Below, in pieces: positions 39,261-62,189 of a stretch of DNA of 64,000 nucleotides. The notes beneath the pieces were generated by a model. It did not search any database. It was not told the DNA's origin and saw only the letters and a program-made list of their open reading frames with translations. The stretch comes from a virus. Where the stretch lies: positions 1-64,000 of IMG/VR virus record IMGVR_UViG_3300027714_000001. The stretch is one strand, 5' to 3'. Numbering within the stretch: position 1 is the first letter of the stretch; each line of letters begins with the position of its first letter. The translations under genes were made by a program, and so were the position numbers.

Positions 39261-39633
39261 ACTTTTACTAGTAAACAGTGCGGAAGACGAAAGTCTACTA
39301 AAGTATCTAAAAGATAGTGGCTACTTAATAGTGTTTTGCAAGCCCAATGAGATAATAAAGACATGCAAGAAAGTAGCTCCTCAAATAATACTAATTCTAG
39401 ATATGCAGGACGATCTAGAATTAGTAGAGTTATTAAGTAACCCTGACATATCTAGTATACCTGCTATTCACGCTACAACAGGATACCCAGTAGACGATAC
39501 TTCTAAACATACAAAGTTTTTTGATATATCAAAGAAAGTAAACATTTATAAATCACTTATAAACATGAAGATTATATCAGACAAACTATCAAATATTATA
39601 GCAAAACAAGTTGACATAGAGGATGCTTTCTAG
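39250..39633 (+). CDS. CheY-like receiver-domain protein (degenerate)
   Basis: KLLLV..ED...GY.....APQIILILD...IPAI pattern. Confidence 0.5.
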   Translation: MINKLLLVNSAEDESLLKYLKDSGYLIVFCKPNEIIKTCKKVAPQIILILDMQDDLELVELLSNPDISSIPAIHATTGYPVDDTSKHTKFFDISKKVNIYKSLINMKIISDKLSNIIAKQVDIEDAF

Positions 39634-39795
39634 TATAATTGCATTTCAGATTTGAGAAAAGCGTTTTACAAAACAGTTTAAAAAACATCTTGCTATACAA
39701 GCCATTCTTTGCTATAATATGTTTCTGGAATTGAGAAAAAGCATAAAAAAGAAAACAAAAAACATCTTGCTATATCGGTCATAACTTGATATAAT
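39611..39795 (+). promoter_or_regulatory. Three tandem strong promoters ~78 bp apart at the start of the tRNA region
   Basis: TTGACA/TTGCTA-17-TATAAT at 39611, 39690 and 39767. Confidence 0.85.
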
Positions 39796-39828
39796 AGATT
39801 TTCAAATTAACTAAAAGAGAGAAAAATT

Positions 39829-40964: not shown

Positions 40965-41041
40965 GTGCGTGGGGCTGGATGGGTTTAGGCTGCGGATTGC
41001 AAACTCGTATCAAGCAGGTTCGATTCCTGTCACGTACTCCA
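40965..41041 (+). tRNA. tRNA-Cys(GCA)
   Basis: Cloverleaf, U73, encoded CCA. Confidence 0.9.
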
Positions 41042-45962: not shown

Positions 45963-46370
45963 ATGACTTCACAAGAACTACAAGATTATCTAACTGAGGA
46001 TGCAGCCGTGGGCGAACGATTTTATAGACAACAAGCAGAACGTGGTCGCAAAGGCTTACCTACAGGCTCAAGCACTTGTAGCGACCCTTATGCTACTTTT
46101 CCGAAAGGCGAAGGCAAAAAAACTGTTGCAAAAGCACCACGTAAATTAAAAGCAGATTATGTGTCAGAAATTGGCGTAGCTGGTATTGACAAGCTTACTT
46201 TAGTAGACTTGCAAGTGCTTGCTGCTCTAGTCACTGACATTAAACTTGTTATGCCTACTGGCAGACTCAAGTCGCCTTACATCGACCAGTGCAGTTTGCT
46301 ATGTCCCGAAGTTAAGTTCGACAAGCTTACTATTGCTACTCTCAAGTTACTTATAGGTAAGTATTCATGA
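45963..46370 (+). CDS. Hypothetical protein, paralog of 63522-63863
   Basis: Internal repeat K..Y...DKLT...L; start taken at ATG 45963. Confidence 0.65.
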   Translation: MTSQELQDYLTEDAAVGERFYRQQAERGRKGLPTGSSTCSDPYATFPKGEGKKTVAKAPRKLKADYVSEIGVAGIDKLTLVDLQVLAALVTDIKLVMPTGRLKSPYIDQCSLLCPEVKFDKLTIATLKLLIGKYS

Positions 46371-46553
46371 GAGTAATAGTTATAGCAAGTGTATCTCCAA
46401 CTAGCCTAGAGTATGACATAAACTATGCTTTGAGTGATGTTAAAAATTCGGAAGTAGTTTCAGATATAAAGTACGTAAATACTAGTGGTTCTTACAGTCA
46501 GTACGTAACAGCTATAATACACGTAGAACCAAAAGCAGAAACAATTTAATTAA

Positions 46554-46631
46554 GTCCCCATAGCTCAGTCTGTGTAGAGCGTTCGACTCATAATCGAAGG
46601 GTCACTGGTTCGAATCCAGTTGGGGACACCA
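46554..46631 (+). tRNA. tRNA-Ile2(CAT, lysidine type)
   Basis: Resembles bacterial ileX-type tRNA (CGACTCATAATCG..GGTC.CTGGTTC). Confidence 0.85.
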
Positions 46632-46689
46632 AATTCTTAAAAAACTTATTGACAAGAATATTAAATCTTGCTATAATAGTTATCTGGAA

Positions 46690-46966
46690 TCGAGAAAGGA
46701 AACGAAAAATAACCGAGTCACTATAAGTGATCCCGATTTATTGCCGTAGGATAGGTAGTACGTAACCGAAGCAATACGACCCTGGAGTGTCAAGCTACAA
46801 ACACTGGGCGTTATACCTGAAAAAACAAACCAAGAGCATGGCCGTATCAGTTCGAAACAACTGGGTCTTCGTGAAAGCCGAAGCAATTTAATAAAAGACT
46901 TTGAAGATAGATTGCTTCTATCCTAAAATACTTGTACAGACAGGCATATCTACTCAAAGTCTTTTC
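46690..46966 (+). ncRNA. Promoter-driven structured RNA(s)
   Basis: TTGACA-17-TATAAT at 46649; no ORF; 12-bp stem 46893-46904/46954-46965. Confidence 0.5.
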
Positions 46967-46973
46967 TTAAATT

Positions 46974-47049
46974 GGGGACATAGTGAAACTGGAGATCACA
47001 CGATTCTTCTAAATTCGTATTCGGGGTTCGAGTCCTCGTGTCCCTACCA
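46974..47049 (+). tRNA. tRNA-Arg(TCT)
   Basis: Cloverleaf, CCA. Confidence 0.9.
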
Positions 47050-47050
47050 A

Positions 47051-47141
47051 GCATGTGTAGACCAGTAAGGATCTGGGGCGGCCTGTAAAGTCGTCGTTGC
47101 CGAGAGGAGCCGTGTAGGATCGTTACCTACCACATGTACCA
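47051..47141 (+). tRNA. tRNA-Tyr(GTA)
   Basis: Long variable arm, CCA. Confidence 0.85.
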
Positions 47142-47143
47142 CA

Positions 47144-47313
47144 TTACTACTAGTATCGGAGAATGCTATGAGAGACAAAAATAGTTGGATTGAAGGCACA
47201 GATGTTTAATAGTGAAACTCAGGGATTTATTAAAGTAGGAGTGTGGGATGGTGAATACCATAGAATCTCACAAGACGACTGGCCAGGTGTTTAATTCAAA
47301 GGAACTAGTATAA
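47144..47313 (+). ncRNA. Structured RNA between tRNA-Tyr and tRNA-Asn
   Basis: Closing stem TACTAGT/ACTAGTA, internal hairpins, no ORF. Confidence 0.45.
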
Positions 47314-47321
47314 CAAATTTA

Positions 47322-47398
47322 GGGTGAGAAGCTTAAGTGGCATAAGCGACTGGCTGTTAACCAGAAGATAGAAGGTTCGAGTCCTTCCTCTCCCGCCA
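47322..47398 (+). tRNA. tRNA-Asn(GTT)
   Basis: Cloverleaf, G73, CCA. Confidence 0.92.
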
Positions 47399-47404
47399 CA
47401 TTAT

Positions 47405-47479
47405 AAGGACGAGCATAAGGTATGCGTCGGGTCTCCAAAATCTTGAAAAGACAGAGTTCGATTCTCTGCGTCTTTGCCA
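47405..47479 (+). tRNA. tRNA-Trp(CCA)
   Basis: CT CCA AA loop, G73, CCA; short D arm. Confidence 0.8.
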
Positions 47480-47517
47480 AATCCTCTACCTTAGGATAGC
47501 ACATTAGATTGTGTACT

Positions 47518-47540
47518 AGCCCACTTCGGTGGGCTTTTTA
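47518..47540 (+). terminator. Intrinsic terminator
   Basis: AGCCCAC TTCG GTGGGCT + T tract. Confidence 0.85.
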
Positions 47541-47676
47541 TCCTTCTAAAATAACTTATAAATGTTCTTGCTTAAACGCTAATTGTTTGCTATAATATGT
47601 TTCTGGAATCAAGAAAGGCTTTAGAAAATTTTGAACTTTATAAATGTTAACTCTCTCATCTTAGGAAAATAAATTA

Positions 47677-47997
47677 ATGAAGAAAATATTATTAGCAGTA
47701 ACATTAGCCACGATGTTAGTATCGTGTGCAGACAACAAAGTATTACCCCATTATGGAGAAGTAAAAACTTATGGACTAGTTGATGCAAGTGCAGTAAAAC
47801 TTCCTTGTGTTAATTATGAAGTAGCTATTGGAAACGTAATCTGGTCAGCTATTTTTGCCCCGACAGTAGCAGTCCCTATATACATGGTAGGCTTTAGTAT
47901 TATGGAACCGACAAGTGTTGACGAGCTTTGTATGATAAAGACATTTGATGAAACCGAAGTCGGCAACTTGTTTAGAGAATACGAAAAAACTTTGTAA
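47677..47997 (+). CDS. Lipoprotein
   Basis: MKK + hydrophobic segment + LVSC lipobox. Confidence 0.7.
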   Translation: MKKILLAVTLATMLVSCADNKVLPHYGEVKTYGLVDASAVKLPCVNYEVAIGNVIWSAIFAPTVAVPIYMVGFSIMEPTSVDELCMIKTFDETEVGNLFREYEKTL

Positions 47998-48049
47998 AAC
48001 TTCTTGACTAATAGCCAATAACTCGGTATAATAGTTCTAGAAATTGAGA

Positions 48050-48400
48050 ATAAAGGCTAAAGCAATTTAGTCTAGCCATACGCTTGAGGCTTAAGATAGC
48101 GGGGTCACTTTCAAGACCTATACTATGAAACAGATTCTATAGTCTGTAAAACTCTGGGGTCTAGTAGTTATGTGTCTCCTTAACAATACTACCGATTCAG
48201 TCACACTTCGTATTCAGGGTGATAGTTGGCTACTTAATGCTAGACGCGGGTACTTAGTCTATAAAATATAGTATCAGGGGATTAACTGGCCACTTTACTT
48301 AGCAGTTCGGGAGATCGTCACAGGAATAATGAGCCTGTAAATAAGTGGTGCAAGAGCGTAGAAGTTATAATAACGTGTCCACTCTAATCAACAACTTAGA
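48050..48400 (+). ncRNA. ~300-nt structured RNA candidate
   Basis: Promoter TTGACT-17-TATAAT at 48004; closing TACGCT (48079)/AGCGTA (48355); no ORF. Confidence 0.5.
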
Positions 48401-48454
48401 AAATAACTTAAAAAACAACTTGCATAACGACTTAAAAATCGGTATAATAGTTTT

Positions 48455-48629
48455 AGAAATTGAGAAAAGAGAGAAAAACTTCTCCTTGAAAAAGCGGTAC
48501 TTCACATCTTTTCTCAAATTTCTAATGTAAGAATCACTGGTAGACAATTCTGCCGTTGACTATGCTTCTTCAGGGGGTGTCTTCTCTAGTAACAACTTAG
48601 GTTGGAGAGTGATTCTTACATTAGAAATT
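48455..48629 (+). ncRNA. RNA closed by a perfect 22-bp stem
   Basis: Promoter at 48420; 48517-48538 is complementary to 48608-48629. Confidence 0.55.
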
Positions 48630-48724
48630 AAAATAACGCAGCAGACCTCTTGTAGGATTGATGAAGCGGAAATAAATTTTTAAAAGACTTGCATAACGGC
48701 TTCAAATCCGGTATAATAGTTTTA

Positions 48725-49395
48725 GAAATTGAGAAAAGAAAAAGAAACGAGTAGCGTGCGAAAGTGATGTTTTTTCTTTTCTGAAAGTTAGGGTAACGCT
48801 CGTGCACTGAGTGAAGGTTCAACTCCTTCTAGTAAATTTCTATTATGCAGGGTACAGTAACCTGACGATGAAAAATACTGAAACCTTTTAATATCCTAGT
48901 AATAAAGTAAAAAGATTCTAGGTAATCCTTCTGGCGATTCAAGTCTTAGATAGGCGGTGAGAAGTGTATTATACAGATGCGTCCGCGACCAACCAACTAA
49001 CACAAAGAATGATACGTAGCCATTACGTTAGACTGCAAACCGTTAAGGGCAGGCCAAGCTCCTAAGAAAACAATCTTGGAAGGCTTATACATATATTGCT
49101 TAGCACTTTGCTCCCTAAGTCTAGTGTGGAATCTATACAGAGGCAAATGCCTCTTTCAGGTCGAAATACCTAGACACACGAAATTGCTAGTCAGCGCAAT
49201 TAAAGATTAACTGATATACAAAGGTGTGACTCCTTTGTCCTTATTAAAGCGTATCTTGAAAGAGGAATAAGAACCTTACGCTGTGATAGCATCCTGCGGT
49301 AGTACGCTTTAATAAGGAAAGTTGTTCAACGGCAGCTCAAAGCGGCATAAAAGATTAATGCAAGGTAAATATTGTTTTCCTTGCGCTTTCCTTAA
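48725..49395 (+). ncRNA. ~670-nt non-coding transcript with several structured domains
   Basis: Promoter at 48689; T-arm-like hairpins; 16-bp stem 49238-49253/49303-49318; no ORF. Confidence 0.5.
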
Positions 49396-49416
49396 CTACT
49401 CAACAAAGGAACAAAA

Positions 49417-49770
49417 ATGGAATACACAATAAAGTGTGATACGCTAGACGTAAAAATGGTAGTTAAAGTTTTAAATAAGGAAAAGTTTGAAGCAGCCATG
49501 ACAAAGACAAATAAGTTTTGGAGTGGAAGCGAAGGAAGAGCTCTGTGTTACGGGGGACATGTACTGGCAGGACTTAAAATGTTTGCTCAAGAATGTCTTC
49601 AGCAAATCGCCTTTAATAACTTTCTTAATGGAGATTACTTAGAATATAAGTTTGATTGGAGCAAAGAAAACCAAGGTATTGAAGGCTTTTATAATTTCGC
49701 TACAGCAGGACTGAAAGTACTGGAAATTAATTCTTGGTTTGTCTGTACTGATGAAATAGAAATAAAGTAA
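49417..49770 (+). CDS. Hypothetical protein
   Basis: AAGGA SD. Confidence 0.7.
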   Translation: MEYTIKCDTLDVKMVVKVLNKEKFEAAMTKTNKFWSGSEGRALCYGGHVLAGLKMFAQECLQQIAFNNFLNGDYLEYKFDWSKENQGIEGFYNFATAGLKVLEINSWFVCTDEIEIK

Positions 49771-49814
49771 AAAACTTCTTGACTAAATACTAGAATCCCC
49801 GTATAATAGATTCT

Positions 49815-50957
49815 AGAAAGTTAAGAAAAGAGATTAATACGAAGCAAGATTTACTCACTTGTTTTTATAAAGGGCGGTTTTATAGTATTGTAAACGTCTA
49901 AAGGAAGAAAGGGTACAGAGTTCTTCACTATAGTTTTAATTTCTTTTCTTAATTTTCTATGCACACTAGCTTCGGCCACATAGTGTAAGAAAGTTAAAAC
50001 CCTTTCTGTCCAATAATCAACGTAAGTCCTGACCCAGGCATTGTAGGGAGAGAGGTGCAATTCCTACCATATCCACGAGTAACGGTCAGTTTACTGAACT
50101 AACTCTAGGGATAAGGTAGATTAAAGCAGGGCGGTTTAGCGTCCTTAAAATAACCCACTGAAAGGTGGAAAAGGTAACTTGTCAGGTTGCCGCTGTGTAG
50201 GCTCCGGTTTACAATAGTTTATCTAGACAAGCACAAGTTTCATTCCGTAAGAATGTCTTTGAGTCTAAAATCAGAGATAGCATTAAAAGGAACGAGCGTA
50301 GGTACTCCCGACAGGCGAGTATAGCGGCTAATAACCAAAAAGCCAAAATTAGACATGGGGACATATTTAAACCTGCAATCCACTCTAGTACGAAATATGC
50401 AAAAACTAATGTGTAGTTGTTTCAGTCCGAGTAGTCATATAAGGGCAGGCAGCAGTAACAAAGAATTGTTTGTAAATAGACAATCCTTAAAATACGGTGG
50501 AGTAGCGGGAACGCGAAAGACAATGTGGTGTGGAATATTTTGTAAGTCAAAAGCTTACGAACTCCTGACGGAACACATCGCAGACAACTAAATAACGCTA
50601 TTGGTTAGCATTTGACTCTTAATCAAACTATCGGGTTCAATTCCCCATTAATCAAAAGTTTCCGTCGGTACGTTATCGAAAGATTGCTAATCCCTGACAA
50701 TAATGAATCAGGGCATATAAAGGTCGAAAGCCTGCATATGTTTACAACGTAGATAAATTTAGTCTCTTAGCGGAGAGTAACAGCCCTAAAGGTTGGAAGG
50801 AATCGAAATGTAGAGTAGATACGTATGACAGTCTTATATGCTTACAAGACTTTAAAGACAAGCGCAATCGGTGGGATACTAGGGAGACCTAGTGGATACG
50901 CAGCTAACTCATATGGCTCGCAAAAGACCTGCTACTAGAAGCCTTAATCTCAGGCTG
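49815..50957 (+). ncRNA. ~1.1-kb large structured RNA, GOLLD-like candidate with embedded tRNA-Lys(CTT)-like element
   Basis: Promoter at 49779; no credible ORF; many hairpins; tRNA arms at ~50597-50647; 3' end AGCCTTAATCTCAGGCT. Confidence 0.55.
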
Positions 50958-51084
50958 ATATAAATTAACTCTTTAGAGAGTATTTATGGGGACACTTTAG
51001 CTTTACCTAAACGCGAATAAGGTATAAATTATAGTAAAGAAGTTGAAGACTAATGCATTAGTTGGATGGACTAAAATATTATAA

Positions 51085-51318
51085 TTGCTAGAGTCCCACC
51101 ATAAGTATTTTAAGAGCAAAAAAAAATTGTCAGCTACCCCTAGTTGGTCTGAGAGTACTGCAATAGGAGAGTTTTACTTTAATTGTCCTATAGGTTATCA
51201 TGTAGATCATATAGTGCATTTACAAGGGCTGATAGTTTGTGGCTTGCATGTGTTAGATAACTTACAGTATCTAACAGAAGAAGAAAATTTAACAAAAAGT
51301 AACGCCTTTATCGTATAG
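51085..51318 (+). pseudogene. Decayed HNH endonuclease
   Basis: YHVDHIV.LQG..VCGLHVLDNLQYL..EEN..KSN; N-terminus missing. Confidence 0.7.
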
Positions 51319-51381
51319 TCCGGTCAATTACGCTGGTTTTGTAATCCAGTTACGTAGGTTCGAATCCTGCTAGAGGCACCA
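51304..51381 (+). tRNA. tRNA-Thr(TGT)
   Basis: Cloverleaf, CCA. Confidence 0.9.
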
Positions 51382-51701
51382 AATTACATTTGACGTAATG
51401 AAACACTAAGTTCTTGCTAAAATACTAGTGTTCCACCGTAACAAGTAGTCTCCTCAACAGGATGAAAGCGACAACGGAACTAAGCAAACAAATACATATA
51501 AGGTTCGATCCCTTTTCTCTGGTGAGTATATGTATGAACAATAGAATTACTGTTCATCTTACATGTAGAATGGTTCATAGCCAGCTATTTTGTACAATGA
51601 ATAACATACCGTAGAGCAAGTCGCACTTGCTAAATATCTAAAGATATGATTTAACAGGTTTCTTTAGACATTACCTCAAATTTAATTTAACAGGAAAGAC
51701 A

Positions 51702-52019
51702 ATGAAGAAAATAGCAATAACAGCCCTTACATTAGGAATGTTAGCTTGTAGTTCTTCGAAGTCTACATTAATTAACGAAGATCATACAAGACTAAACATG
51801 GAAATAAAAGTTCATGTTTTTAAAAACAAGAAGCTATTAAATAGCGCACTAAAAAAAGAGTTTCCTCGCGAAATAAGAACTGTAGAAGGTTTTGCAGTAT
51901 GGTATAACACAGTAGAAGATTACTGCGAAATATATGTTACTAAACCAGACTCTAAGTTTGACATTAACACTTGGGGACATGAGCTAGCACATTGTGTGTA
52001 TGGCAGTTGGCACGACTAA
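51702..52019 (+). CDS. Lipoprotein with HExxH motif
   Basis: LAC lipobox; WGHELAHCVYG. Confidence 0.7.
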   Translation: MKKIAITALTLGMLACSSSKSTLINEDHTRLNMEIKVHVFKNKKLLNSALKKEFPREIRTVEGFAVWYNTVEDYCEIYVTKPDSKFDINTWGHELAHCVYGSWHD

Positions 52020-52251
52020 ACAGAGAAAAAACAAATGGTATTTACAATTTTATTAGTATTAGCAGTCTTTGCTGGAGCATCGTTCCACAAAGAAATCACA
52101 GTAGCAAAACACGTAGTCATAGGGCTAGTAAAAGGTGTCGTACAAAAGTAATGATTGAAGGAGTTGCATTAATAGCAGTAGTATTCTTAGGACTTTATAT
52201 AGGTGATGTAGAAAATTATTTACGTGCCTTAGTAAAGAGGAAATAAACAGC

Positions 52252-52330
52252 GCGGCGGTATGCTAATCTCGGTAACGCAATGAGACTTAAAATCTTATGA
52301 TTGAGGGTTCGACCCCCTCTCGCCGTACCA
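52252..52330 (+). tRNA. tRNA-Leu(TAA), short variable arm
   Basis: Cloverleaf, A73, CCA. Confidence 0.85.
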
Positions 52331-52345
52331 AATTAAGGAGCAGTA

Positions 52346-52591
52346 ATGCTTAGACGTAAAGAAGTAATTGTAGTTCCAGAAGGTGAATTAAAAGAAAAGC
52401 TCTTAGCTCTTATAGCCGAGGATCAAAAAGCTCCGACAGTTTTGACAGCCAGAAAGTTGTGGCGATATTTAAGAAAAGAAATATGTTCTAAAGAATCAAT
52501 ACACTATCGCTACCATAACAGAACAGAGTTACTAGAGATATGTGAAGGTTCTTCTAAAGACTTCTGGATGAAGTATACTTGGAATGTGTGA
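52346..52591 (+). CDS. Hypothetical protein
   Basis: AAGGAG SD. Confidence 0.65.
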   Translation: MLRRKEVIVVPEGELKEKLLALIAEDQKAPTVLTARKLWRYLRKEICSKESIHYRYHNRTELLEICEGSSKDFWMKYTWNV

Positions 52592-52725: not shown

Positions 52726-52808
52726 GCGTGGGTGGCTAATACAAATTGGCACAGTTACTGGGTTTAGAACCCAGGCCTTTGAGGGTTCGAGTCCCTCTCC
52801 GCGTACCA
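52726..52808 (+). tRNA. tRNA-Leu(TAG), short variable arm
   Basis: Cloverleaf with large D-loop, CCA. Confidence 0.85.
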
Positions 52809-52813
52809 AATAT

Positions 52814-52888
52814 AGTCGATTAGCTCAAAGGCAGAGCAGTGGTGTTACATACCAAAGGTTGGGATCTCGGAACTCCCATCGACTACCA
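52814..52888 (+). tRNA. tRNA-Val(TAC)
   Basis: Cloverleaf, atypical T-arm, CCA. Confidence 0.8.
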
Positions 52889-53758: not shown

Positions 53759-54259
53759 ATGGATTACTTTATTGGTGATACCCACTTTGGACACCAAAAT
53801 ATCTTAGAGTTTGGCAGGCCAGGGTATAAAGACATTGAAGATCACAACGAGACTTTAGTGTCAAACTGGAACTCAGTAGTAACTCATAAGAACGACAGAG
53901 TTTACTTAATGGGTGACGTAGCTTTCTCTAGTCAGTACCAGTATTTAGCTAGACTTAACGGTAAGCTAACTATTGTGTTAGGAAACCACGACTACCACAG
54001 CAAAATAAAGATTATTCAGGACATTAGACCTGACGTTAGATTGTGTGGAGCTGTAGCATACGACAAGAGTTTTATCTTAACACACATTCCTGTACATCCT
54101 AGTCAGCTAGAGCACAGGTACAGCCACAACATTCATGGTCACTTGCACAGTTTCAAGATTGACGACCCTCGTTACATTAACGTTAGTTGTGAACAGATCA
54201 ATTCTACTCCGATTTCAATTGAAGAAATTAGAAAAAACATATTGACAGACAGCCAATAA
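53759..54259 (+). CDS. Calcineurin-like metallophosphoesterase
   Basis: GDTHFGH, MGDV, LGNHD, THIP, IHGHLH. Confidence 0.9.
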   Translation: MDYFIGDTHFGHQNILEFGRPGYKDIEDHNETLVSNWNSVVTHKNDRVYLMGDVAFSSQYQYLARLNGKLTIVLGNHDYHSKIKIIQDIRPDVRLCGAVAYDKSFILTHIPVHPSQLEHRYSHNIHGHLHSFKIDDPRYINVSCEQINSTPISIEEIRKNILTDSQ

Positions 54260-54814: not shown

Positions 54815-54891
54815 ATAGCAGAATAGCTTATGTCAGGACAAAGCGTATCCTTCGGGGTAAGAATTCGGTTCGAATCCGATGTATGCGATCA
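54815..54891 (+). ncRNA. tRNA mimic with a UUCG tetraloop instead of an anticodon loop
   Basis: D-arm GCTT/AAGC, TATCC-TTCG-GGGTA, T-arm TCGG TTCGAAT CCGA; weak acceptor stem, no CCA. Confidence 0.6.
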
Positions 54892-58733: not shown

Positions 58734-59064
58734 ATGGAAAAACAAATATGTAAAAAGCTTAACGTTGACCCAAATACTCTGGCTAGGAAGAGCATTACCT
58801 ATGAGCAGTTTACTAGACGGTATATGTATTTCTTGTGCATCTAAAAGTGCTAAGTACCGCGCAAGGCTATATAATAGAATACCTAGTTGGGCTAACATAG
58901 AACAAATAAATGAGTTTTATAGTAATGCTAATGGCTATGAAGTAGATCACATTATTCCATTACACGGAAAATTAGTAAGGGGACTTCATGTATTAAATAA
59001 CTTGCAGTATTTAACTAAAGAAGAAAATCAGGAAAAAAGCAATAAATTTATTGTAAACAAATAA
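58734..59064 (+). pseudogene. HNH endonuclease, apparently frameshifted
   Basis: EVDHIIPLHGKLVRGLHVLNNLQYL...N; SD-led ATG 58734 is in another frame. Confidence 0.7.
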
Positions 59065-61633: not shown

Positions 61634-62057
61634 AGCCCCTGCAAACAGCAAGCTTTATCTTGGAGCAGATAGCGTCCGTTTTATTAAAGACGGACAAGCG
61701 TTTGCTAGAATCTCGGTAGTAGCAGTTATTCACTTAGCTGCTAGCAAAGGTTGTAAAGTTATAGGAGACAATTTTGTCAAACGAGTATATGACAGCAACC
61801 TAGGCAAACCACAACATAGAATGATGTTAGAGGTTTACGAAGTTTGTAAACTTTATCTAGAATTGGTAGAGCATCTTAGTGAGATAGATATTGAAGTGCA
61901 CTTGGACATTAGCGAAGATAGTCAATACGGGTCGTCATGTGCAGCTAAGCAAGCAGCAGGATACATTTTAGGTATGTGTAATGTACGCCCCATTATGAAG
62001 CCAAACGCTTGGGCAGCTTCTACTTGTGCAGACTTATTTAATAAAAAATTAGCTTGA
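61602..62057 (+). CDS. RNase H-like (YkuK-family) protein
   Basis: YLGADS, RMMLEV, EVHLDI, KPNAWAAS..AD. Confidence 0.8.
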   Translation: MKERILEEFRKAPANSKLYLGADSVRFIKDGQAFARISVVAVIHLAASKGCKVIGDNFVKRVYDSNLGKPQHRMMLEVYEVCKLYLELVEHLSEIDIEVHLDISEDSQYGSSCAAKQAAGYILGMCNVRPIMKPNAWAASTCADLFNKKLA

Positions 62058-62189
62058 CGTATTGGTTAGCTTTTGCTATAATATGTTTCTGGAATTGAGA
62101 AACAGATAAGCAAATAAATAAAACATAAATTGGTTTGACCAATAGCCAAATATTTGCTATAATAGTTTTAGAAATTGAGGAAACAGACA

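Follow-up and report, generated by a model that had tools for sequence, protein, structure and literature searches.

A GOLLD RNA and conserved non-coding modules in the tRNA island of an uncultured marine phage read as T5-like

Background

This work concerns a stretch of viral DNA (positions 46,690 to 51,084 of the window, that is, of the 64,000 nucleotides (nt) analysed from IMG/VR virus record IMGVR_UViG_3300027714_000001) that lies inside a phage tRNA cluster and carries a GOLLD RNA together with other non-coding units. GOLLD RNA was reportedly described by Weinberg et al. in 2009. Members of the family form a 14-mer cage, as seen by cryo-electron microscopy, have tRNAs in their linkers, and show expression rising in lysis (10.1101/2024.12.08.627333). 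The window copy resembles them in its full-length match, its covarying 3' domain, its variable 5' domain, the tRNA-like insert in its linker and its position in a phage tRNA island. It differs from them in being led by its own sigma-70 cassette and a leader/anti-leader hairpin of about 24 base pairs (bp) instead of directly following a tRNA, in the absence of an acceptor stem from its linker module, and in the further conserved non-coding modules that flank it.

Phage T5 has strong sigma-70 early promoters and a conserved transcribed leader bearing a Shine-Dalgarno sequence, and its tRNA region contains small stable RNAs, interspersed small open reading frames (ORFs) and HNH endonucleases. The phage studied here is similar in its T5-like genome, in the combination of a sigma-70 promoter with a conserved Shine-Dalgarno leader, and in a tRNA region with small ORFs and HNH endonucleases; unlike the early units of T5, its cassette also drives RNA genes, in which the leader appears to be neutralised by an anti-leader. 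Beyond tRNA-Asn and GOLLD, searches showed no similarity between the island and cultured T5-like phages. ROOL (RF03087) and other large phage RNAs are comparable to two of the units described below, C and D, in being phage-encoded, beside tRNAs and several hundred nt long, with conserved junctions and loops and variable stems, but C and D match them neither in sequence nor in structure and were seen in one narrow marine phage lineage. The near-perfect duplexes of 17-27 bp that flank or precede the RNAs of the stretch (48517-48629, 49814-49960 and 46884-46974) recall the RNase III stems of rRNA or T7 type; they differ in being local 5' hairpins and not end-to-end pairings, and their cleavage is putative.

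The source record measures 106,179 bp and has direct terminal repeats (IMG/VR); the window is its first 64 kb. It encodes a T5-type origin-binding protein (phrog_3712, E 1e-219), a DNA polymerase and helicases, its ribonucleotide reductase is nearest to those of T5-like Vibrio phages of 112-116 kb (about 50% amino-acid identity), and at least 24 tRNA genes lie on the plus strand from 40.9 to 59.3 kb. All runs holding DNA of this phage were marine metagenomes. From these genomic features the source is read as an uncultured marine T5-like phage. The island stretch had no megablast match among 50,697 phage records, and distant blastn against phage records matched only tRNA-Asn and the GOLLD 3' domain.

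The stretch is probably the RNA-gene part of the tRNA island of this marine T5-like phage, composed of short units on the phage's standard early promoter/leader cassette: a tRNA operon, two protein genes, GOLLD, and the lineage-specific modules B3, C and D. It comprises about 1 kb of GOLLD, about 0.9 kb of tRNA operon, 0.7 kb of protein-coding sequence and about 0.5 kb (B3, C core and D core) of conserved non-coding DNA of no catalogued family. The original prediction, made from the letters of the window alone, described a series of separately promoted, ORF-free structured RNAs. The clustering of separately promoted non-coding units inside the tRNA region was borne out, with covariation-supported structure in units C and D, and the non-coding amount, given as 2.5 kb, proved larger (about 3.3 of 4.4 kb are neither protein nor tRNA). 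The parts of the stretch described below all lie on the plus strand.

A full-length GOLLD RNA

The last unit of the stretch, about 1150 nt long and led by a promoter at 49779 (unit E), had only been compared to GOLLD; it contains a full-length GOLLD RNA scoring above the Rfam gathering threshold. RF02032 matched positions 50523-50956 with 175.2 bits (gathering score 150; E 1.6e-47), over model positions 1-416 of 416. The RNA runs from 49961 to 50956 and combines a 5' domain with this 3' domain (50523-50956), which gives a length of about 1000 nt (1145 nt if counted from the transcription start); a tRNA-Thr gene follows 350 nt downstream. The available relatives were a 3.6-kb marine metagenome contig found in a metagenome scan (L024, the sole relative compared for the other modules of the stretch), and the Vibrio phages D260, D239 and D69, whose GOLLD RNAs also lie inside tRNA clusters. 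Forty-two of the 92 predicted pairs of the 3' domain were changed on both sides among the window, L024 and the three Vibrio phages, and the 5' domain, conserved with L024 from about position 50129, showed 11 compensatory pairs against that contig.

In the linker of the window GOLLD, ARAGORN at relaxed thresholds found a tRNA-Lys(CUU)-like module (50589-50655) that lacks an acceptor stem; it gave no match at E<=1 to the Rfam tRNA family (RF00005), for which a complete cloverleaf and more than 29 bits would be expected. Its counterpart in L024 scored 37 bits on the Rfam tRNA model (model positions 6-65), again with the acceptor stem absent, and the anticodon stem of the module covaries between the window and L024. 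The linkers of the Vibrio phage GOLLD RNAs carry no tRNA-like module. In D260 and D239, a tRNA-Ser(GGA)-like gene (ARAGORN, relaxed) precedes the GOLLD 3' domain by about 490-670 nt, immediately before the 5' region and so in the position that a 5' hairpin occupies in the window, which fits a need of GOLLD for a defined 5' end. In the records of the three Vibrio phages, the GOLLD regions (L021 5020-6300 in D260, L022 5360-6550 in D239, L023 5565-6440 in D69) are annotated as "hypothetical proteins" of 30-60 amino acids on both strands.

As a family member, the window GOLLD of about 1 kb would fold and self-assemble into a 14-mer cage, and its linker, hence the tRNA-like module, would face the cage interior.

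One promoter cassette for mRNA and RNA units

The five consensus promoters of the original prediction (46649, 48004, 48420, 48689 and 49779, heading units A to E) were all present and are copies of one cassette: a -35 box TTGACx, 17 nt, TATAAT, and a conserved leader of the type A(T/G)nTTTCTGGAATTGAGAAAAGG, ending in GAGAAAAG. The match to the sigma-70 consensus was 12/12 at 46649 (46649-46677, the promoter of the tRNA operon, TTGACA-17-TATAAT, TG-extended) and 11/12 at both 48004 (48004-48032) and 49779 (49779-49807); the promoters at 48420 (48420-48448) and 48689 (48689-48717) read TTGCAT-17-TATAAT. The raw count of promoter-like sites was not above that of shuffled sequences (15 vs. 15.6), and the five promoters are credible because they are copies of an extended cassette that a whole-genome scan found about 26 times, always in gene direction.

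About half of the copies (about 13) have an ATG 26-34 nt past the -10 box, which indicates that the GAGAAAAGG box serves as a Shine-Dalgarno sequence. In the five units of the stretch the cassette is present and the ATG is missing, and to this extent their description as ORF-free was right; but unit A proved to be a tRNA operon and two protein genes had been missed. A sixth cassette copy in the island, at 47568, drives an ORF. The leader at 46649 matches that of the ORF-leading cassette at 54242 (25 nt, 96% identical), but has ATA in place of ATG. Beyond promoter and leader, the island units are not paralogs of one another. Elsewhere in the window, tandem cassette copies less than 80 nt apart were found ahead of single ORFs (39611-39800 and 62054-62165); stacked promoters or relics of cassette-mediated recombination are possible explanations for them.

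For each of 26 cassettes, a complement to the 30-nt leader was sought in the 260 nt downstream. A strong anti-leader was found at only three of them, those of units C, D and GOLLD. In unit C, 48453-48484 pairs with 48493-48526 (cassette 48420; duplex z score -6.3), and in unit D, 48729-48754 pairs with 48757-48786 (cassette 48689; z -3.2). In unit E, whose promoter and hairpin together span 49779-49960, 49814-49850 pairs with 49922-49960 in a hairpin of about 24 pairs (-30 kcal/mol, z -9.8). For units A and B, and for the joint C and D unit of L024, no anti-leader better than in shuffled sequences was found. L024 has two cassettes before GOLLD; their leaders differ, and each has its own matching anti-leader (by eye). 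The cassette was probably borrowed from mRNA units; in the RNA units, pairing of the anti-leader with the Shine-Dalgarno-like leader would keep ribosomes off, and the resulting stem of 17-27 bp may either protect the 5' end or be an RNase III site at which the mature RNA is released.

Conserved modules B3, C and D

L024 has the order promoter, B3, promoter, C, D, DUF2528 gene, promoter with hairpin, promoter with hairpin, GOLLD, tRNA-Thr; the modules are arranged differently in the window, with C, D, DUF2528 and GOLLD following one another in the same succession in both. The 5' part of unit B (48035-48294), which together with its promoter spans 48004-48294, is absent from L024 and has neither an ORF nor evidence of structure. 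It is followed by B3 (48295-48419), a nearly invariant and thermodynamically unstructured module (fold z +1.3) that continues into A-rich sequence upstream of promoter C. B3 shares 84% of its bases with L024 328-502, including an unbroken identical run of about 70, and is thus conserved above the DUF2528 gene (84% vs. 71% nucleotide identity).

Unit C (48420-48688) consists of the promoter, the leader/anti-leader stem, a perfect 22-bp stem (48517-48538 with 48608-48629) and a three-hairpin core enclosed by the latter; its fold z score was -4.2. The core with its closing stem (48530-48616) has 38 pairs against L024, of which 6 are double changes, and is 100% paired. In unit D, a variable 5' part (48689-49043 with promoter and leader stem) precedes the D core (49044-49416), which is composed of a hairpin block (49046-49085) and a six-helix 3' domain (49175-49405). 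The stem of the hairpin block covaries (CCAAG/CTTGG vs. CTAAG/CTTAG in L024), and the 3' domain has 53 pairs with 10 double changes and none broken. Slid-partner controls gave 0-2 double changes for C as for D, and G-U pairs in both, several of those in D being invariant, fit the plus strand only. In D, single-stranded blocks are conserved and between them lie variable stems and large indels, and helix H4 of the L024 copy holds a tRNA-like insert (19 bits, tRNA model positions 10-63, acceptor stem absent). The 5' part of D (48745-49043) is poorly alignable with L024 and includes a weak tRNA-like stretch (48772-48837); as a whole, unit D has a moderate fold (z -2.0). The hairpins and long closing stems ascribed to all units are real for unit C, for a hairpin at 46884-46974 and for the leader stems of C, D and E, moderate for D, and not distinguishable from shuffled sequences for unit B (z -0.09) or for unit A as a whole (z -0.95).

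Outside the DUF2528 gene, the similarity to L024 extended over all frames and both strands, as expected of non-coding DNA. Two further frames were rejected as genes: the L024 version of a 61-codon frame (48345-48530) stops after 27 codons (by eye), and a 78-codon frame (50355-50591) has no matching plus-strand ORF in L024; neither had a family match.

Covariance-model searches against Rfam, which recognised GOLLD, gave no family match for units B, C and D, including ROOL (E<=10; the chance-level matches reached at most 23 bits, well short of the gathering scores). The statement that most members belong to no nameable family applies to C and D, but not to the largest unit, which is GOLLD, or to the first, which is a tRNA operon. 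No self-cleaving ribozyme (hepatitis delta virus-like, hammerhead or twister) was found at E<=1 over 46000-52500 or at E<=10 over 47990-49430. The D 3' domain, searched as a covariance model (R1), matched only the window and L024, with nothing in D260, D239, D69 or the other loci; a motif search allowing 2 mismatches did not find the island modules in the loci of the searched relatives; and neither exact-motif scans of IMG/VR (promoter box, D, B3, GOLLD and C motifs) nor motif scans of GTDB genomes gave a match. A protein-guided search led only to 45%-identical, apparently prophage-type DUF2528 loci; DUF2528 homologs with 75% and 66% identity exist (P0002, P0003).

The position of the D core allows a different explanation, namely that it is a structured 5' untranslated region that controls the translation of the DUF2528 gene, for example by pairing of CUUUCCUU with an upstream GGAAAG or with the AAGGAA Shine-Dalgarno sequence. 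Both in the window and in L024 the core ends directly at the DUF2528 Shine-Dalgarno sequence and ATG, a conserved CGCTTTCCTTA lies 12-20 nt upstream of the former, and no terminator separates D from the gene. However, at about 370-700 nt the element is far above the usual leader size, helix H4 of its L024 copy accommodates the tRNA-like insert, nothing like D accompanies other DUF2528 genes (L025, L026 and the prophage loci), and the alternative pairing of CUUUCCUU was read by eye only. We regard this explanation as unlikely, although it survives better than the others considered below.

Cover by RNA libraries

Part of the stretch is present in thirteen marine metatranscriptome runs, and four of them, from four studies, were compared; parts without contig cover were taken as no evidence. 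GOLLD was covered by contigs of all four studies, from 49995 or 50077 to 50862 or 50918. B3 and promoter C were covered by contigs in X8, X12, X14 and X16, and D in X8 and X16; X12 and X14 cover little beyond GOLLD and B3, apart from one X12 contig inside DUF2528. An X8 contig, from the identical strain, begins at 49995, directly past the hairpin, though contig ends prove little. The depth of the X8 contigs was 88 for GOLLD and 4-12 for its neighbours, which is a hint only, as depth cannot rank genes. These values are compatible with GOLLD and its neighbours being the most abundant RNAs of the phage. Two contig joints, 48471 to 48741 (at a 31-nt repeat) and 48472 to 49044 (with a short side), may be assembly effects. 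Loose ends at 47996 and 48050 in X8 were rejected as a variant; they come from the phage's own promoter locus at 56.5 kb.

tRNA operon, protein genes and neighbouring elements

Unit A starts with an ORF-less leader of 290 nt (46680-46973; the z score of -0.95 refers to the whole-leader fold, and no homolog was available). Its last 90 nt (46884-46974) form a hairpin of about 21 bp that abuts tRNA-Arg (-28 kcal/mol, z -5.4). The body of the operon (46974-47535; ARAGORN and Rfam) comprises tRNA-Arg(TCT) (46974-47049), tRNA-Tyr(GTA) (47051-47141), a spacer, tRNA-Asn(GTT) (47322-47398), tRNA-Trp(CCA) (47405-47479) and an intrinsic terminator (47518-47535) that closes it. The Arg and Asn genes were called by default ARAGORN, and those for Tyr and Trp at relaxed thresholds only; tRNA-Tyr scored 24 bits on the Rfam tRNA model (47051-47138). 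The tRNA-Trp-like gene has a normal acceptor stem, T-arm and CCA end, together with a D-loop of 3 nt and an anticodon loop of 9 nt (by eye), and could act as a mimic or decode in an unusual way. Between tRNA-Tyr and tRNA-Asn, a spacer (47139-47321, about 180 nt) contains two mini-ORFs of 13 and 21 codons with GGAG/AGGAG Shine-Dalgarno sequences (by eye).

The first protein gene lies between the operon and unit B (47568-47997) and consists of the sixth cassette (47568-47596) and a 106-codon ORF (47677-47997) with an AGGAAA Shine-Dalgarno sequence and a lipoprotein-type N-terminus (lipoprotein signal MKKILLAVTLATMLVSC); its product had no Pfam or PHROG match. Superinfection exclusion by T5 uses a small lipoprotein, Llp, and by analogy the ORF could be its counterpart. 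The second, between D and unit E, encodes a DUF2528 protein of 117 amino acids (49417-49770; Pfam PF10800, E 1e-22; phrog_646), and was the only frame conserved as protein with L024 in 46.7-51.3 kb (54% amino-acid identity).

Immediately downstream of the stretch, positions 51085-51318 contain a 77-codon ORF with a TTG start and an HNH/endonuclease VII-like motif (phrog_26577, E 7e-12; phrog_1035). This ORF and the start of tRNA-Thr overlap, and a 70%-identical paralogous stretch is present in a 99-codon ORF (58765-59064) just before tRNA-Ala; both resemble relics of homing endonucleases next to tRNAs, which other T5-like phages also have. Default ARAGORN did not call three further tRNA matches that exceed the Rfam gathering score (40965-41038, 52726-52805 and 52814-52885). 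Directly after tRNA-Gly, a tRNA-shaped element (54815-54891) has a C(UUCG)G tetraloop hairpin replacing the anticodon arm and a canonical GGTTCGAATCC T-arm. Aberrant tRNAs thus also sit in the tRNA cluster that encloses all the island units.

Discussion

If the stretch is, as appears probable, the RNA-gene part of a T5-like tRNA island built on the early cassette, the C and D cores would be stable structured RNAs made early in infection beside GOLLD. Several points weigh against this. The covariation in C and D is between two sequences only, and the helices come from RNAalifold, a program that leans towards covarying pairs. Neither unit A nor unit B has a structural signal, and B3 offers no variation to test. 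The anti-leader device is common but not universal, the C and D unit of L024 being without it, and end-to-end pairing of GOLLD or of D was not better than in shuffled sequences. The RNA evidence is made of assembled contigs without strand, ends or reliable levels, in which DNA carry-over is possible; C may be missing in some relatives, but the contig joints concerned are at the 31-nt repeat or short-sided.

A coordinated system of several RNAs (GOLLD, C, D and the tRNA-like modules), directed at host translation or serving as decoys for anticodon nucleases, seems rather improbable. It would account for the acceptor-less tRNA-like modules in the GOLLD linkers of the window and L024 and in helix H4 of the L024 D, for the conserved order C, D, DUF2528 and GOLLD, and for the location of all the units in a cluster that also holds aberrant tRNAs. 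However, neither C nor D accompanies GOLLD in D260, D239 or D69, the linker module has the anticodon CUU in the window and CUC in L024, against one fixed target, and the tRNA-like stretch of the window D is very weak at best. It is more doubtful still that the C and D cores, perhaps with B3, are new classes of phage structured RNA working with GOLLD as one early-expressed system, for instance as tRNA mimics for anticodon nucleases or tRNA enzymes, or by co-assembly with the cage. The least plausible explanation is that the ORF-less units other than GOLLD and the tRNAs are debris (duplicated cassettes and the remains of ORFs or tRNAs in a region that recombination reshuffles fast), which would fit units A and B folding no better than shuffled sequences, the different arrangement in L024, the ATA in the otherwise ORF-type leader at 46649 and the weak tRNA-like remnant in the variable part of D, but not the conservation of B3 above a neighbouring protein gene, the retention of every helix of C and D through 16 double changes, the specificity of the anti-leaders for the C, D and GOLLD units, or the library contigs over the B3/D region.

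Read as the RNA-gene part of a T5-like tRNA island, the stretch combines known elements, the GOLLD family and a tRNA operon, with what, as judged from sequence comparison, is new here: C and D cores that have no Rfam family. At about 90 nt (C) and about 370 nt (D), these cores are small candidates for new structured-RNA families, with a measure of support already from covariation and from RNA-library contigs. The anti-leader suggests the conversion of an mRNA cassette into an RNA-gene cassette, and could serve as a rule for finding such genes in other phages. RNA islands in phage records, as in those of the Vibrio phages, are filled with spurious tiny "hypothetical proteins". For the GOLLD family, a T5-like lytic phage is a new setting, in which the RNA has its own strong promoter, a 5' hairpin, a tRNA-mimic linker and conserved non-coding neighbours; these features are handles on how GOLLD is made and on what acts with it.

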